64,000 nt of DNA from Zootoca vivipara (lineage: Eukaryota), in assembly GCF_963506605.1 (NCBI RefSeq), contig NC_083280.1, positions 27,342,001 to 27,406,000 of the forward strand. The letters are read 5' to 3'. The number at the start of each line of letters is the position of its first letter. Position 1 is the stretch's first letter. Both the position numbers and the translations under genes were made by a program. Under the pieces are notes generated by a model. The model was not told the DNA's origin. It did not search any database and saw only the letters and a list, made by a program, of their open reading frames with translations. This document shows, piece by piece, positions 1,605 to 29,632 of the stretch.

Positions 1605-2315
1605 CCTGACCCTTAAAAGTAACTTATTGGAGATCTAGGAGCTGTACCTAGAAAGAAGATGTCCCAGTTACACCAGACTAACTCCTATTAGTGATTCTCT
1701 GGGTCCAATCCTGTGTTTTTCACTTGCTTTGGAAGTGGCTTTCTTTCACATATTCTTATTTTGAACATCCTACTTACTTTGTACTTCATTGGCCTATGTC
1801 ATCTGAATTGTCCTGGCTCCACCCACTGAACTGTCATGCTCCACCCCCTTACCTGTGGACAGAAACTGGTCTCTATTTTCATCTGTGAGGTGATGGAGAG
1901 ACTAGGGCTGGGCCATGGCTATTATTTGAATGCATTTCCAGAGAAAAGCTGCCGAGACATTCAACAGGAAAGCAATTATGAGATTTGGTAATCAAAGTAC
2001 TGTTTGTGTCACCCTTTAAAAAAGGAGAGGCTCAAAGCTCATGGAAGCTCAGCAATGAAACAGCAGCAAATAATCATGACAAATGTAAGATTTAATTTGT
2101 TACAGTAATACAACTCATTACTTTCTTCTTGCCTCATACTTCCTTTTCAGTAACGAGAAAGGTGAGCCTGCTCCTGCAAATGGAGTTCTGCTGGCATCAC
2201 TCCTTTTCCCTGACAGCCACACATAAACAGCCACACACATTTGATTCATGAGAAACAAAAATGTAAAAGATAATTGTATCACAATGCATTGCTTAATTTA
2301 CTATCTAGATATTTG

Positions 2316-3125
2316 CGTGTGAAGACCTTTTAACCACACCCCGAAATAAATTCAGACCAGACTCAAATTTTAGGTTTCGTTTTTGGCAGTATTTAGGCCA
2401 CAACTTTATTGATTACAATCAAGTGAGTGGCTGCATAGGCTCTGGTTCGACTAGCTCCCTGCACCCTTGCAGGCAGCGCTGACCCTGGGCACCAACCATA
2501 GGTCAGCCTAGGGTGAACACCTGGGACAGTGGAAAGCAGGAGCCCTGTTAGACCTCCACCCAGATGTCCCCTGGACTCAGGCTCAGGGCACAACCCCTCA
2601 CAGGGAAGACCAACCATGAGTCCATGGATTCCTTCTTAAAGGAATACCCAACGAATAGGGATGGCTAGGCATCCTACCACCCCTATCCACAAGAAACAGA
2701 GCCTATCCACAACCTTACAAGTTGTGACGATTTGCTATGTGGCACGCGAAACCCAAATGGCACCAGCCAATCAGCCAAGTGGGGGAAATTCCTGCCGTGC
2801 CCCTGTCCCAATGACAGATGACACACGACGGCATAGCAAGGTCAAGTGCAAGCCCTAAATATAGGGAGAGGTGGGCAAGTGTTCCAATGCACTGAGCCCA
2901 AAAGGGACACATGCATGGGCTTAAATAGAGGTCCCTCGATCAATTTGACTGGCATCCCATTGGCCCAATTGCACCCAAGATCAAGGGACCTCCAATAGGG
3001 TGTTGTGGCCACCCAAATGTTCCCACCCACAAGACAGGGTCTGGTTGCCAGGTCACATCACAACACGTGCCCTCTTAAGGGAGGACCCGATTTACTTAGT
3101 GGCAGGGAGATAAAATCAGGTCACA
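2316..3125 (-). mobile_element. solo LTR (LTR-A) with structured R region
   Basis: (T>C)GTGTG...TCACA ends; approximate 4-bp TSD tttg/cttg. On the minus strand: CCAAT (~2960), TATTTAAG (~2920-2928), AATAAA (2405-2410). Shares blocks with 15724-16490. Confidence 0.75.
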
Positions 3126-6625: not shown

Positions 6626-6757
6626 CTGTAGAGGGTGTACCCCTCTTGAGATTTCTAGCTTGCAGGACACTGTTTCCTGTACAGAGCAACCTCACCACAG
6701 TATTCCTTTTCTTGTCCTTCCCATAGGGTTTGCATTCAGAGAATTCTGATTCCACGG

Positions 6758-7649
6758 CATGGACGTAGCCAGGATGAAATTCAGGGGGGGCAAGGGGGGC
6801 AAAGGGGCAGGGCCAAGGGGCGGGGGGAGGGGCCACAGTGGGGCAAGGAAAGCTCCCTTCTCCCTTGCCAGCTTTCCCTCCTCCCGCCCCAGCGATCGCG
6901 GAGGGGATCGGAGCAGCCCGATTTCGGGCTGCTCCGACTCCCTCCTCCCCCTCCGCGATCGGCAGGGGCGAGGGGGCACCAGGAACAGCCCGAAATCGGG
7001 CTGCTCCGACTCCCTCCTCCCCCTCCGCGATCGGCAGGGGCGAGGGGGAGCCAGGATCAGCCCGAAATCGGGCTGCTCCGACTCCCTCCTCCCCCTCCGC
7101 GATCGGCAGGGGCGAGGGGGAGCCAGGATCAGCCCGGAATCGGGCTGCTCCGACTACCTCCTCCCCCTCCGCGATCGGCAGGGGCGAGGGGGAGCCAGGA
7201 TCAGCCCGAAATCGGGCTGCTCCGGCTACCTCCTCCCCCTCCGCGATCGGCAGGGGCGAGGGGGAGCCAGGATCAGCCCGAAATCGGGCTGCTCCGTCTA
7301 CCTCCTCCCCCTCCGCGATCGGCAGGGGCGAGGGGGAGCCAGGATCAGCCCGAAATCGGGCTGCTCCGACTACCTCCTCCCCCTCCGCGATCGGCAGGGG
7401 CGAGGGGGAGCCAGGATCAGCCCGGAATCGGGCTGCTCCGATCCCCTCCTCCCCCTCTGCAATCGCCGGGGCAGGTGGAGGGAAAGCCCCAGAGCTGCGC
7501 AAAGCGGTTGCCTGGCTTTCCCTCCACCCGCCCCACAGCCAGCCAGGGAGAAGGGAGAAGGCACCGGGCGGGCAGCGGGGCAGGCTGGCCAGCGCCCCTG
7601 CTTCTAGGGGGGGCAATTGCCCCCTCCTGCCCCCCTGCCTACGCCCATG
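6758..7649. mobile_element. non-autonomous hAT element containing a 72-bp minisatellite
   Basis: TIR catggacgtag/ctacgcccatg; perfect 8-bp TSD ttccacgg (6750-6757, 7650-7657). Confidence 0.92.
6914..7470. repeat. 72-bp GC-rich tandem repeat, ~7.7 copies
   Basis: cagcccg starts at 6914, 6986, 7058, 7130, 7202, 7274, 7346 and 7418; ORF track shows 24-aa periodicity. Confidence 0.95.
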
Positions 7650-10934: not shown

Positions 10935-13703
10935 TCTTTTTTCTTTCTATTTAGTGATCCCTTGTAGCCGAGTAAGATTGTCTTCCATAAACACGGTTTT
11001 AACAATGAGTCCGTGAGTGGCTGTGGAGGCCAATTCTGGATCCACACATCCTTCCACAGTGGGGACATTAGTTTCCAGGTGGGAGTTGATCACAGTGTGG
11101 ATTTGCCAACCATGCCTTCTTCTTAGCATGTTTCTCCCTTGCATCCTGAGATCGAGTGTCTTCAAAGCCCATGACACCTTTGGTAAAGGCTGTTCTCCAA
11201 CTGGAGTGCTCACAGGCCAGTGTTTCCCAGTTGTCAGTGTTTATACTACATTTTTTTAGATTTGCCTTGAGACAGTCTTTAAACCTCTTGTGTTGACCAC
11301 CAGCATTACGCTTTCCATTTTTAAGTTCGGAATAGAGTAGTTGCTTTGGAAGACGATCATGAGGCATCCACACAACATGACCAGTCCAACGAAGTTGATG
11401 TTGAGGAATCATTGCTTCAACACTGGTATCTTTACTTCTTCCAGTACACTGATATTAGTTCACCTGTCTTCCCAAGTGATGTGTAAACTTTTTCAGAGAC
11501 ATCATTGATGGAATCTTTCGAGGAGTTAGAGATGGTGTTTATAAGTGGTCCATGTTTCACAAGCATATAGTAAAGATGGTAGTACAATAGCTCTGTGAAC
11601 AAGTATTTTGGTTTCCCTGCGAATGTCCCGGTCCACAAACACTCTGCACTTCAATTGGGAGAAAGCCACACTCGCAGAGCTCAGGCGATGCTGGACTTTT
11701 GCATCAATGTTGGCCTTTGTGGAAAGGTAACTGCCTAGGGAGGAGAAGTGATCGACATTTTCCAATGTTACAACACTGAGTTGAATTTGTGGTGCTGCAG
11801 AGGGGTTATTATGTACTTGTTGTTGCAGCACTTTGGTTTTTTGGATGTTGAGTGATAGGCCAAGCTTTTTGTAAGCTTCTGTAAATATATTTAGGATGGT
11901 TTGGAGGTCATCCTCTGAGCGTGCACACACTACGTTGTCATCAGTATACTGAAGCTCTATGATGGAAGTTATGGTAACCTTACTTTTTGCTTTCAGCCTG
12001 CTCTGATTGAATAGCTTTCCATCTGTTCGATATATGATTTCTACTCCGGTGGGGACCTTCCCGTTGACAAAGTGTAGGATCATGGCAATGAAAATAATGA
12101 ATAGAGTTGGGGCAATATCACAACCCTGTTTAACACCTGATCCCACTGTGAATGGGATCTCACTTTGAGAGCCATTGTTATCTGCCATTGTTGCTGTCAT
12201 ATTATCATAGAGGAGCCGAATGATGTTTACAAATTTATCTGGGCAGCCAATTTTCAGAAGGACAGTCCACAGGGCATTACAATTTACAGTGTCAAAAGCC
12301 TTAGTCAGGTCAATAAACAGGGGTTGGTTTTGCTCTCTGCATTTTTCTTGAAGCTGTCGAGTGGTGAAAATCATGTCCACTGTCCCCCTAGAAGGCCGAA
12401 AACCATTTTGGGATTCAGGAAGGGTCACCTCATATATTGTTACGAGACTGTTTAATTTTGCCAGCCGCAGCTAATAGAGAGTTGCCTCAATAGTTTCCAC
12501 AATCAGTTCTGTCACCTTTTTTAAAGAGATTGATAATTTTGTCATCCCTAAAGTCTGCTGGGATTTCTTCTTTTTCCAGATTTTTTTTTGATGAGCTTGT
12601 GAAGTTGTTATGTAAGTTCAATTCCGCTCACTTTGAAGATTTTGGCAGGTCCACTGGCTTTGTTGTTTTTCATTTGGTTAATAGCTGTACACAACTCTCC
12701 CAGATTTGGAGATACTGTAAGCTCATCTCTAACTTGTTTTTGCAGAATTTGTGAGAGGACCTCAGCAGCTACGGGGGAGTTGCAGTTAAGGAGATGTTGG
12801 TAATGTTCTTTCCAGCGCAGTGCAATAGCTTCTTTATCTTTTAGACATGTGATACCATCTGCTGAGCATAGGGGGCATATGCCATGATTTATTGGCCCAT
12901 AGATGGTCTTTGTGGCTTTAAAGAAACTCTGTGCATCATGAGTGTCCGCTAAGTGCTGGATCTCTTGAGGTTTTTTTTTATCCACCAGGTGTTTTTCAGT
13001 TCTCTGGTTCTTCTTTGACCCTCAGCCTTAGCGTTGGCATAGGTTTTTTTCTTAGTGGCACAGTTTCTATCTCTTTGCCAGATCTGAAAGGCCTTCCTTT
13101 TCTTGTCAATCATGCATTCAATCTCACTGTCATTCTCATCAAACCAGTCCTGGTGTTTCTTGGTTTGGTATCCAATAGTTTGTTCACAGGCTGCAATAAT
13201 GGATGTTTTTAGCTTGGTCCAGTGTTCCCCGATGTTATCAGGGAATTCTGAAAGCAGATGATCCTTAAGAGTCATTTGGAAGCAATCCTGCTTAATGGAA
13301 TCTTGAAGGGCTTGAGTGTTCATTTTGCACCTTGGTTTCCTTCCTTGAAGCCTGCATTGAGGTATAATCTTGATAGCCATCATGGAGCGTATTAGTCGGT
13401 GATCTGTCCAGCAGTCATCAGCGCTCGTCATAGCTCTGGTAAGGAGCACATCACGGTGATCTTTAGCACAGACATAGTCTAAGAGGTGCCAGTGGTTTGA
13501 CCGAGGGTGCCTCCATGAAGTTTTAAATTTATTTTTCTGTCGAAAGAGTGTGTTGGTAATAACAAGGTTGTGCGCTGCATGTATTGTCAAAAGTAAGATT
13601 CCGTTCTGGTTGGTGTTGCCAACTCCTTCTTTCCCAATAGTCCCAGGCCACAGATCGAGATCTCACCCAACTCTTGCATTAAAATCACCCAGCAGGATAA
13701 TTG
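10935..13703 (-). mobile_element. RTE-clade LINE, 5'-truncated and disrupted (endonuclease-RT-C-terminus)
   Basis: ILLGDFNARVG and WHLLDY endonuclease motifs; QNGFRPSR, FIDLTKAFDTV, GVKQGC and LQYTDD RT motifs; QLRWTGHV..M...RLPKQLLYSEL. Contains frameshifts and stops. Confidence 0.95.
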
Positions 13704-14924: not shown

Positions 14925-15718
14925 TCAACCCAGTGGATAGCAGATGTGAAAAAGATGAACTCCATGTTAAGGATCATTAGGAAAGGGGTTGAAAATAAAA
15001 CTCCCAGTGATCATTGTGCCTTTACAAAAATCTATGTACCCTTGGGAAATAGCTAATGTTAGTACTACTCAAAGTAGACCCACTGAAATGGAGAAATATG
15101 ACTAACTTAAGCCTACTAATTTCAATGGGTCTGCTCTGAATAAGACTTAGTTCAGGCATCCCCAAACTGTGGCCCTCCAGATGTTTTGGCCTACAACTCC
15201 CATGATCCCTAGCTAACAGGAGCAGTGGTCAGGGAAGATGGGAATTGTAGTCCAAAACACCTGGAGGGACGAAGTTTGGGGATGCTTGACTTAGTTGATG
15301 ATAGCCCATAGAATGCCACACATAAATTGTGGTTGCCACAATGCAAAAAGGACAATGAAAATGATCAAGGGGCTGGAGCAAATCCTCTATGGTAAAAGGT
15401 TACAATGGGTGAGAGGTAGTTTAGAAATAAAAAACATGAGTAAGTGAGGACATGATAAAGGGAATACCTGATAGAACTAGAGTTCATCCAAGAAAAATGA
15501 AAACTGGGAGATTCAAGGCGGACAGAAGGAGGTCCTTCACTAATGAATTGGTAAATTATGAAATTCCCTACCCCAGTATATAGTGATGGTCACCCATTTG
15601 GACAGCTTGAAAAGGAAATTAGACAAATTCATGGAGCATAAGGCAATCATTGGCTACTAGTCATGCTGGCTATGTTACCTCCAGTATCAGAGGCAATATG
15701 CCCCTGAATCCCAGCTGT
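14925..15718 (+). mobile_element. old CR1 LINE 3' part, interrupted by MITEs
   Basis: aactccatgttaaggatcattaggaaaggggttgaaaataaaac, atgatcaaggggctggagca, and the ttagacaaattcatggag...ggctactag 3' end. Confidence 0.75.
15153..15288. mobile_element. palindromic hAT MITE (caggcatccccaaact family)
   Basis: Long TIRs; perfect TSD acttagtt. Confidence 0.9.
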
Positions 15719-15723
15719 TCCAT

Positions 15724-16490
15724 TGTGTGGCAATAGCCCTCCTTCCCATGTAATAAAGACTCATGACACAGTGATTAAGATTTAATTGGGTGGTTAAGGC
15801 CACAACTTTATTAATTATGCATGTTGAGCGGAATTGGCTTAGGCGTTGGAACCTAACAGACTATATCCGACTCCAACCCGTGTGTTGAAGTCTGTGAGAA
15901 GTTAACCACCAGAAAGGAGCCCCGCGACGTAGATCTACTAGAGCTCCTCCTGTGGCCACCGAAGGGCGTGCCTTACGGCCCAGGCAACTCCAGGCTCAGG
16001 ACCAAGCCTCGCCCCCGGAATCCTTTAACGGAATTACTTCTCCAAATTTGGGCAGCTGATGACGTAGCCTGCCCCTCCTCCATCTAATTGTTATGCAAAT
16101 TTCCAACGCCTAACCGCCTAACCTAAGTTGTGACGACATGCTACGAGGTAGGCGAAAAACCCATCATGGCTAGCCCAGTATGGGAAAAATCCTACCCAGC
16201 CCCCTGGCCAACCAGGGCGACCAACTGACGTCCACAGCAGCGTCCCCTTACCTCTTTTTAAGGGGTGGGCGGGCGGGTGAATTGTTCGCTCCGGCGAAGA
16301 GGGACGAAAGAGGGAGCTTTCCCCGCCTGCAGAGTGCTTAAAGTTGGTGGCCCCGCCCCGACCGACCTCATTGGCTGGTCGGGGGGTGACGCAGGCGGGA
16401 ACCTACCATTGCGTAGGGGCTGAGCTTGCAGCCCCTACGCGATGGTACAGTCGGGCAGCCCACAACCCCACCTCCGTCGCAGGCGCGGAA
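15724..16490 (-). mobile_element. solo LTR (LTR-B) with structured R region; right end approximate
   Basis: TGTGTG left end. On the minus strand: CCAAT (~16370), GC box (~16351), TTTAAG (~16340), AATAAA (15807-15812). CpG-rich, suggesting a young insertion; homologous blocks to LTR-A. Confidence 0.78.
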
Positions 16491-17294
16491 GTGGCTTTCT
16501 TATGTTCTTAGTTTTTTCCCCATTTAAATAGAACTGAATATCAGCCAGAGTGCTGCACCTGAAGGAGGGGGAAATGCAACCAGTCTCCATAGCTCTGTCA
16601 AGTATAGAGCAGTGCTGCAATAGTTATGTAGACAACTTTTCCCTGCTTGCCATTTGGATGGTTGCCTTTGGACAGCTCCTACCTTCCTCAGTTGTTACTC
16701 CGTACAACTAAGAAATGCTGTGGTACACCTGCATGAGCCTCCATCTGTCCCTGAGGCAACAAAATGTGTCTCTTCCATATCGGTCTTTACAGCCACAGCA
16801 AGCACTGTAACTCTCCAAGAGTTTGACTTCACCCCTGAAGGCACACTCTCCCATTGTCTCCCGTGACAGACAGATGCAAAAAATAATTTTTGTGAGAGGG
16901 ATAAACCAATTGTGTCAATAACAAGAGGCAACATAATGGTTTCGTTTATTAAAACAATAAAAACAGGCCACCAGGAGTGGAGCTCCAAAGCAGGCAAAAT
17001 AATGAGTTAACTACACAACAAAGAGGTTGATAAAATCAGAAGTACCCAGCCAGCACCAGAGAATTGGATCCACTGGAAGCCAAAGCTCATCAGGAGTAAG
17101 AGTAGACTTACAGAAGACAGAGTTTCTGCACAAAAGCAAAAGATGTGATGCTGAAAGGCTATGTCTCCTTGGGGTGCAACAAGACAAATAATATTTCCCT
17201 CAGCACTGTTTTGAAAAAACTGCACAATATCGGAAGGTAACTAACCTATTCCCATTATATGCACATATCGTATCAGGGCTACAATAGCTACAAT

Positions 17295-29484: not shown

Positions 29485-29632
29485 TTCTGGGATAGCTCAG
29501 TTGGTAGAGCATGAGACTCTTAATCTCAGGGTCATGGGTTCAAGTCCCACATTGGGTAAAATATTCCTGCATTGCAGAGGGTTGGACTAGAAGACTTTCG
29601 TGGTCCGTCCAACTTTACAATTCTATTATTCT
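29485..29632 (+). mobile_element. tRNA-Lys(CTT)-derived SINE with CR1-type 3' tail
   Basis: tagctcagttggtagagcatgagactcttaatctcagggtc.tgggttc matches tRNA-Lys(CTT); followed by gggttggactaga...tccaactttacaattcta, like the CR1 tail. Confidence 0.88.

Follow-up and report, generated by a model that had tools for sequence, protein, structure and literature searches.

We find a real, conserved and apparently undescribed RNA domain in a known class of retrotransposons, the novelty of which is best taken as provisional. The domain lies in spacer C of a Ngaro-type element of Zootoca vivipara and is predicted to form, on the sense strand, a three-way junction that bears an ENE-shaped arm with a U-rich internal loop. 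This arm forms the heart of the domain, which acts in cis and for which the leading reading, at about even odds, is an ENE-like poly(A) clamp that would stabilise read-through transcripts only. The window, that is, the whole stretch of DNA that was analysed, has a length of 64,000 nt (GCF_963506605.1, NC_083280.1, positions 27,342,001-27,406,000 of the forward strand), and the genome that was searched comprises 1.44 Gb in 48 contigs. The features discussed below are collected in Table 1.

Table 1. Features of the window that bear on the C domain (positions are those of the window)
Feature	Position	Strand	Details	Basis
Solo A-C-B remnant	15723..16498	-	Ngaro-type (split direct repeat) tyrosine-recombinase retrotransposon	copy comparison and ORFs
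Repeat A, 220 nt	16279..16498	-	CCAAT (16374), GC-box (16359) and TATA-like (16342) motifs	bounds of the repeat A1 match
Spacer C, 160 nt	16119..16278	-	one copy per element, lying between A2 and B2; contains the entire structured domain	
Repeat B, 396 nt	15723..16118	-		
Outer helix P1/P0	16135..16244	-	16244-16233 with 16145-16135; closes the three-way junction	
Side helix P2	16198..16222	-	conserved bulged G at 16218	
ENE-like arm	16147..16196	-	lower stem GGUAGG/CCUACC, loop AUUUUU/UUUUUCG, upper stem CCCAU/AUGGG, small 2x2 loop, apical hairpin	
Anchor, 5' arm GUCACAACUU	16125..16134	-	complementary to 15808-15799, which overlaps and follows AAUAAA	invariant in 9/9 families
Long-range helix PB, 5' arm	16101..16113	-	start of B; pairs with 15851-15839	MFE and centroid, covariation
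Long-range helix PB, 3' arm	15839..15851	-	about 30 nt before the poly(A) signal	
AAUAAA poly(A) signal with conserved GUUGUGGCC (anchor 3' arm)	15798..15812	-		8368 exact genome matches
Decayed C domain of a second family	2717..2846	-	GGCAGG/CCUGCC stem, U3-4/U3 loop	85.9 bits; relatives in the training alignment

The host element

The original prediction took the unit that carries the domain for a solo LTR. This label has to be given up, since the unit is the A-C-B remnant of a split-direct-repeat element of Ngaro type, with no target-site duplication seen by eye in solo copies and no match to rve. A DNA search of the genome with window positions 15700-16560 (40 scored of 2236 candidates) delimited a repeat unit of 776 bp, which begins with AAAGCC in 31 of 32 rows and ends with CACAC followed by AA in all 23 rows where the end was located; by eye, none of seven solo copies with both ends has a target-site duplication beyond AA. 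An extra B, i.e. the last 396 nt of the unit or sometimes part of them, lies immediately upstream in 14 of 30 fetched close copies. Repeat A (the first 201-222 nt) recurs about 6 kb upstream in nine of 13 longer stretches, the other four being two stretches that have no A1, one tandem array and one partial A. The layout of the element is A1-ORFs-B1-A2-C-B2, with the 160-nt C solely between A2 and B2, and in each of four full-length stretches the covariance model matches once per element.

One copy, L042, has four long ORFs: gag-like, RT, tyrosine recombinase (YR) and SGNH-like. In Pfam, the RT ORF matches RVT_1 (E 1.9e-13), and the YR ORF matches Phage_integrase (E 1.9e-4) and SAM_4 (E 1.7e-4), both below the Pfam cut-off, its HxxR and Y motifs being recognised by eye. 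The SGNH-like ORF has an atlas score of 0.98 to SGNH/GDSL clusters. The Pfam matches of this copy include RVT_1 and phage integrase and no rve (DDE integrase), and a methyltransferase family is found in none of five L042 ORFs at E 0.01. In other words, the element combines the marks of Ngaro: split direct repeats, ORFs for RT/RNase H and YR, and an SGNH ORF after YR with no methyltransferase match. A Ngaro-like element with an SGNH hydrolase ORF is described from Xenopus in the available text of PMC9210276 (DIRS-53/54_XT). On the evidence of its repeats and reading frames, the host is a Ngaro-type tyrosine-recombinase retrotransposon, and the window copy is a recombination leftover of the form A-C-B. 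An LTR or ERV solo LTR was rejected on the ends (AAAGCC...CACAC|AA, not TG...CA), the layout and the ORFs, and a Penelope pseudo-LTR reading was dropped after A1 and the YR ORF were found. Ngaro relatives were absent from the viral and prokaryote collections searched.

To judge from its motifs, repeat A is a probable promoter. Full-length sisters of the window copy (99.7% identical) have short ORFs only and inserted repeat sequence. The youngest subfamily (L031-L040, >98% identical) also has short ORFs only, with a host-type repeat inserted near L034 4837-5370, and has probably spread non-autonomously. A tandem array A-B-A-C-B-A-C-B, from which the internal region is absent, occupies L041 160-2300 and is also seen in L009 and L010. 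In L031, L035 and L042, as in most copies, A1 stops at about base 220 and the sequence beyond differs between copies, hinting at a fixed template-switch point.

A second family is present in the window as a unit at about 2311-3094 (minus), the other of the two repeats that the original prediction had called LTRs. Its members (L044-L073) share the C domain, the PB helix and the poly(A) motif. No second B lies within 1.5 kb in any of the 30 copies that were fetched, and the family looks old and mostly solo. Beyond the C domains of these two units, the covariance model has no further match in the window. Elsewhere in the window we noted a 72-nt tandem repeat with several frames open (6753-7615), a partial tRNA match of 44 bits (29493-29550, plus), perhaps a SINE head or a pseudogene, and a non-LTR-type RT fragment (11526-12470, minus; RVT_1, E 3e-26), which has no model match nearby.

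Predicted fold and its conservation between families

The minus strand of 16125-16250 folds as originally drawn: MFE and centroid structures agree and reproduce the stems, the U-rich loop, the outer helix and the side hairpin. In the ENE-like arm, the lower stem has six pairs (16196-16191 with 16152-16147), the two loop strands occupy 16190-16185 (AUUUUU) and 16159-16153 (UUUUUCG), and the upper stem has five pairs (16184-16180 with 16164-16160), all on the minus strand. The hairpin at 16217-16202 is present too, and it is the distal part of a larger helix, P2. As a single sequence the stretch is weakly stable (z -1.77, with 10 of 200 shuffles equally stable), and its opposite, plus strand has a z of -2.49. 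A pattern defined post hoc has one match in the window versus none in 200 Markov copies, and was given little weight. It is the comparison between families, and not single-sequence energy, that provides support beyond chance.

The first alignment comprised 30 rows hand-chosen for diversity, with a structure that we drew from the sequences. In it, 91.7% of 736 cells are paired, and two-sided change is seen in 15 of 25 pairs; three rows of metagenome origin have another alignment of the outer helix. Slid controls pair at 37-50%, and none of 500 shuffles reaches the observed percentage, a test that kinship among the sequences inflates in both alignments. RNAalifold independently recovers the three main helices. 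The 23 rows of the second alignment were picked via the poly(A) signal, not the loop, but were fitted to the covariance model. Here 93.6% of cells are paired and 25 cells show two-sided change (0 of 500 shuffles), whereas the number of pairs with such change, six, is matched by 85 of 500 shuffles, i.e. is not above chance.

The lower stem is paired in 100% of cells in the first alignment and 96% in the second. Its distal pairs covary (U-A, A-U and C-G; G-C to A-U), the A-U type at one stem position of the first alignment being imposed by the search pattern in most rows. In the first alignment, P2 is paired in 94% of cells, with two-sided change in four of its six pairs, and its bulged G is found in 29 of 30 rows. 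The loop U columns of that alignment are invariant (30/30), the search patterns having forced these U's in most rows; in the second, the core U's occur in 23, 21 and 22 of 23 rows on the 5' strand and in 23, 22 and 23 of 23 on the 3' strand. The G-C pairs closing the loop are present in 30/30 rows of the first alignment and in 19/23 and 23/23 of the second, where the A that opens the loop is seen in 22/23 rows, the G that ends it in 21/23, and the base after the A is free. The 3' loop strand terminates in YG, the U-tract lengths range from 3/3 to 7/6, and an apical AUU(A/G)G is conserved.

In the second alignment, G-U cells on the sense strand outnumber A-C cells by 62 to 15. Neutral CpG decay would be expected to yield about equal counts of the two, and the excess points to sense-strand RNA. 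Family sampling rests on sequence patterns and best matches; within it, nine family representatives, whose identity over C-B is mostly 46-62% and reaches 76% and 89% in the closest cases, all keep a loop of three or more U on each strand closed by GG/CC, together with GUCACAACUU and the poly(A) motif. The alignments show that compensatory changes have preserved the three-way junction in the sense-strand RNA. The original prediction had staked itself on conserved U tracts and on stem covariation, and both were found: the tracts are conserved between families, and the stems carry compensatory changes. The single-sequence z of only -1.77, the folding of the other strand as well and the common ancestor of all families would agree with a fold that arose by chance, or with a palindrome at the DNA level, that was passed on by descent. 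Such an origin is nonetheless largely refuted, and scarcely credible, given compensatory changes in four helices, a G-U bias on one strand and conservation against a background identity of about 50%.

In Rfam, the domain has no match at the gathering score and, at E up to 10, only chance-level miRNA and snoRNA rows. This bears on the notion of a self-cleaving or otherwise catalytic RNA. Other retroelements carry ribozymes, and a three-way junction with invariant unpaired bases might suit one. However, no ribozyme family matched at E up to 10, and reads and a contig cross C with no listed pile of ends, so that we hold a catalytic role to be very improbable.

Repeat B is otherwise poorly conserved, with the exception of a short UAA.GG motif (window about 16030-16024, minus) that is invariant across the nine representatives. 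B also has a hammerhead-like CUGAUGA on its plus strand, which lacks conservation between families and was dropped.

Outside this genome, four of 34 metagenome pattern matches carry the same junction and loop at 78-83 bits (three of them belong to the training set), in GC-rich contigs with a tandemly repeated context. In these contigs (L167, L169, L179 and L194), the three-way fold recurs in decayed form about every 175 nt, and the anchor sequence is missing. They seem to resemble CR1 3' UTRs of other vertebrates, but the link to CR1 suggested in the original prediction was not confirmed: the five frames tested had no Pfam match and tblastn found no RT. The A-U variants that could be placed in this genome are Ngaro-type. 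The other 30 metagenome matches look like chance (19 of them were scanned and score 18-27 bits), as do, by eye, all 41 viral pattern matches.

Position of the domain and long-range helices

The fold sits entirely within C. Among 20 diverged 3' ends, hand-picked from 150 SGNH matches with 65-78% protein identity, 16 have B twice and one model match ending just before B2, and the other four have one poly(A) motif and no model match. The poly(A) motif of B, AATAAAGTTGTGGCC, has 8368 exact matches in the genome, the reversed control none. The first 30 matches include 22 with the domain upstream on the same strand, one with a partial domain farther off and seven with none; given these numbers, stabilised 3' ends may be available ready-made at thousands of loci in the host. 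Despite about 50% identity between families, the distance from loop to AAUAAA is mostly about 300-345 nt (about 330 nt in the window).

Helix PB covaries strongly and, as the pairings at one position show, is kept such that it zips B shut in the predicted fold: G-C occurs there in 19, A-U in 15, U-A in 13 and C-G in four stretches, with a mismatch in six (57 of 67 stretches parsed). The anchor helix appears in both the MFE and the centroid structure of the window C-B stretch, where the two final A of AAUAAA are part of it. Ensemble probabilities above 0.5 were obtained for it in 16/16 full-length 3' ends, 15/22 signal-chosen and 9/10 hand-picked sequences, versus 3/16 copies with a mutated 3' arm, sets that included three further rows as controls from another search. 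Among 65 variant-signal loci there is no compensatory anchor variant: copies with a changed 3' arm retain the usual 5' arm or have none within reach, and the changes look like decay after insertion.

Modelling suggests that B may adopt two folds, depending on whether it stands as B1 or as B2. The bases preceding AAUAAA pair with post-ORF sequence in the B1 context only, and this pairing covaries in three families. The start of B was found in 12 of 15 loci, and there the pairing energy of B is about -29 to -42 kcal/mol with the sequence before B1 versus -9 to -18 with the end of C. In L031, L042, L086, L089 and L105, the 55 nt preceding B1 pair with the 34 nt before the B1 AAUAAA; this second long-range helix, which also covaries, is confined to the B1 context, and a small conserved hairpin comes next, immediately ahead of B1. 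Just 5' of the fold, an acceptor-like pyrimidine tract with AG|G is seen in L105, L108, L112, L143 and others, twice in some families, and in the window's family the sequence at about 16262-16250 (AG|GTAAG) is donor-like as well. From such sequences, C-B could be a terminal exon.

It might be argued that C governs 3'-end choice or nuclear export and forms no triplex, with B folding differently after the ORFs and after C so that the two poly(A) signals are used differently. The pairing confined to B1 would fit, as would the overlap of anchor and AAUAAA, which exists in the B2 context only, and the acceptor-like tract with AG that several families have. Yet U on both loop strands would be left unexplained, and the anchor would mask B2, not B1. 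Moreover, no splice joint into C is among the joint rows listed. On balance, we find this explanation rather improbable.

RNA reads

Reads from three raw RNA runs, all from a single study and sampled to about 6%, were mapped on L034 together with one contig set, with read strandedness assumed from the tool's note. There is sense-biased RNA over C and B. Sense-direction depth over C and B2 is 40 and 88 versus about 1 in run X14, 21 and 19 versus 3.5 and 1.5 in X15, and 3 and 9 versus <1 in X16. The maxima of the ORF-region bins are 2.8, 6.1 and 8.5, respectively, and X16 shows no enrichment of C-B over the ORF region. Over the lower stem, X14 has 50 reads in one direction and two in the other. 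The variants in this run agree with a different full-length subfamily at 18/18 positions; the reads do not demonstrate transcription of the window's own copy, and the C-B excess may come from solo copies and cross-mapping. The rows listed include neither a poly(A) end nor a splice joint into C, the mapping being swamped by the host repeat inside L034.

Possible functions of the domain

The C domain is ENE-shaped, and its membership in the class is plausible but putative. As in ENEs, a hairpin contains a U-rich internal loop with U on both strands, and G-C pairs that could provide A-minor contacts adjoin the loop; such pairs are named as needed in the available parts of PMC7583470 and PMC12501189. 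The loop strands would allow U-A.U triples from 5/5 U in the window's subfamily, 4/5 in 14/16 full-length ends and 3/3 to 4/4 in many others, whereas the PAN ENE has five triples (PMC7583470, in part). With a triple count that is often below that of PAN, the domain is a candidate ENE.

If the domain is a poly(A) clamp, it could work as follows. PB and the anchor would hold the B2 poly(A) site at the foot of the C domain, and a tail added about 15-30 nt after AAUAAA would start at the domain base, provided that the anchor forms. From there the tail would follow first the outer and then the lower stem, reaching the loop on its G-C side. Entry from this side is the polarity of known ENE triplexes. 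What PMC8704770 reports in its accessible part is consistent with it. Three to five U-A.U triples would form in the loop and slow deadenylation. With B present twice, transcripts may end at B1 or read through to B2, and the B1-A2 junction, needed to rebuild the ends, would be carried solely by read-through RNA, as would C. Since only read-through RNA has C, a clamp would enrich replication-competent RNA over B1-terminated messages. Selection on the domain would have acted in active parents, not in the window's copy.

Several features speak against a clamp. The near-invariant U's are only three per strand, and many families would form three or four triples compared to five in PAN. With an invariant A and then a variable base at the start of its 5' strand, and YG at the end of its 3' strand, the loop could instead close through A.G and U.U pairs and serve as a protein target. 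An ENE also gives no reason for the conservation of the bulged G, the three-way junction and the apical AUU(A/G)G. Finally, an anchor lying over the last two A of AAUAAA could hinder the use of B2.

Features of this kind lead to another possibility, namely that C is a recognition site for the RT or Gag of the element, used in packaging or at the start of reverse transcription. In this view, a protein would recognise the loop as a stack of non-canonical A.G and U.U pairs, to which the long-range helices would deliver the RNA 3' end. Contacts with protein, or tertiary contacts, typically leave such marks as the invariant A and G, the bulged G and the conserved apical loop, and the genomic RNA has C a single time, at its 3' end. 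Beyond A1 the sequence varies among copies, so that no conserved primer site is seen there, and for DIRS-1 of the same order the primer is given as unknown in the accessible text of PMC7192593. VIPER, too, has an exclusive stretch between A and B according to the part of PMC6681497 at hand. However, the fold is also present in four metagenome contigs, in a tandem setting that is not of Ngaro type, which would better suit a function that relies on host machinery, and a U-tract length varying from 3 to 7 would be poorly tolerated by a tight protein site. In addition, if priming took place within C, its 3' half, which is unique, would not be copied without an extra step. We regard such a site as unlikely, if far from negligible; a hybrid, in which the clamped tail end is used as primer, is possible.

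One may go further and imagine a two-state 3' machine at the end of the genomic RNA of vertebrate Ngaro elements, to which we give little credence: B would fold with post-ORF sequence at B1 and with C at B2, a tethered triple helix would grip the tail, mark the copyable transcript and hand its 3' end to RT, and the module would have moved between unrelated retroelement classes. If true, this would amount to a new ENE class and an answer to template choice and priming in split-repeat retrotransposons. For the question of how split-direct-repeat retrotransposons choose their RNA 3' end and begin reverse transcription, C offers a domain of 125 nt with clear bounds, a pair of long-range helices and naturally occurring variants for mutation and assay. 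Should the domain bind poly(A), ENEs would extend to tyrosine-recombinase elements and gain a short-loop, tethered-tail design that would be useful as an RNA-stability part.

Comparison with known systems

TE-borne ENEs and dENEs have reportedly been treated by Tycowski in 2016 and by Torabi in 2021. The accessible part of PMC7583470 lists ENEs for stickleback retroviruses as well as for TEs of plants, fungi and slime moulds, and that of PMC12501189 shows an ENE to aid the mobility of Evade. The suggestion that a vertebrate TE-borne ENE might be an undescribed system is weakened by the stickleback entries (PMC7583470); for the C domain itself, Rfam has no match. With TE-borne ENEs and dENEs, those of Evade (PMC12501189) and of stickleback retroviruses (PMC7583470) among them, the C domain shares a U-rich loop in 3' non-coding transposon RNA; it differs in its host, a tyrosine-recombinase element, and in having a single U-rich loop. 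The two loops of a dENE are not seen, there being one U-rich loop and above it a small, mostly 2x2 loop. Among the papers listed in literature searches, none points in its title or the start of its abstract to a structured spacer or ENE in Ngaro elements, and the supplementary ENE lists (Tycowski 2012/2016, Torabi 2021, Zhang 2017) may hold the motif.

Among related retrotransposons, Xenopus DIRS-53/54_XT (PMC9210276) share the arrangement A1-ORFs-B1-A2-B2 and the gag-like, RT/RH, YR and SGNH ORFs, and Cafeteria Ngaro (PMC8547959) shares the solo AB remnants. A unique 160-nt structured spacer between A2 and B2 is not part of their descriptions in the text available from these sources. SIRE of Trypanosoma cruzi VIPER is likewise a solo unit, in which an exclusive stretch separates A from B, but its spacer is about 30 bp, with no structure described in the available portion of PMC6681497.

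The original prediction likened the stretch to both PAN and MALAT1. The U-rich loop and the closing G-C pairs hold up, whereas the MALAT1 type does not. With the blunt-ended triple helices of MALAT1 and MEN-beta the C domain shares the U-rich stem-loop design, but no C or G interrupts its U tracts, and downstream there is neither a genomic A-rich tract nor a mascRNA or tRNA match. It is closer in outline to the single-domain ENE of KSHV PAN, as portrayed in the accessible parts of PMC7583470, PMC13541005 and PMC8704770: common to both are a hairpin, U on both strands of the internal loop, adjoining G-C pairs, short extra bases on the 3' strand and a place near the 3' end of a probably polyadenylated RNA. 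Compared to the five triples of PAN, the C domain, whose binding is putative, would allow three to five, and an invariant A opens its 5' strand. In addition, it goes beyond the PAN hairpin by sitting in a three-way junction, to which predicted long-range helices would tether the poly(A) signal.
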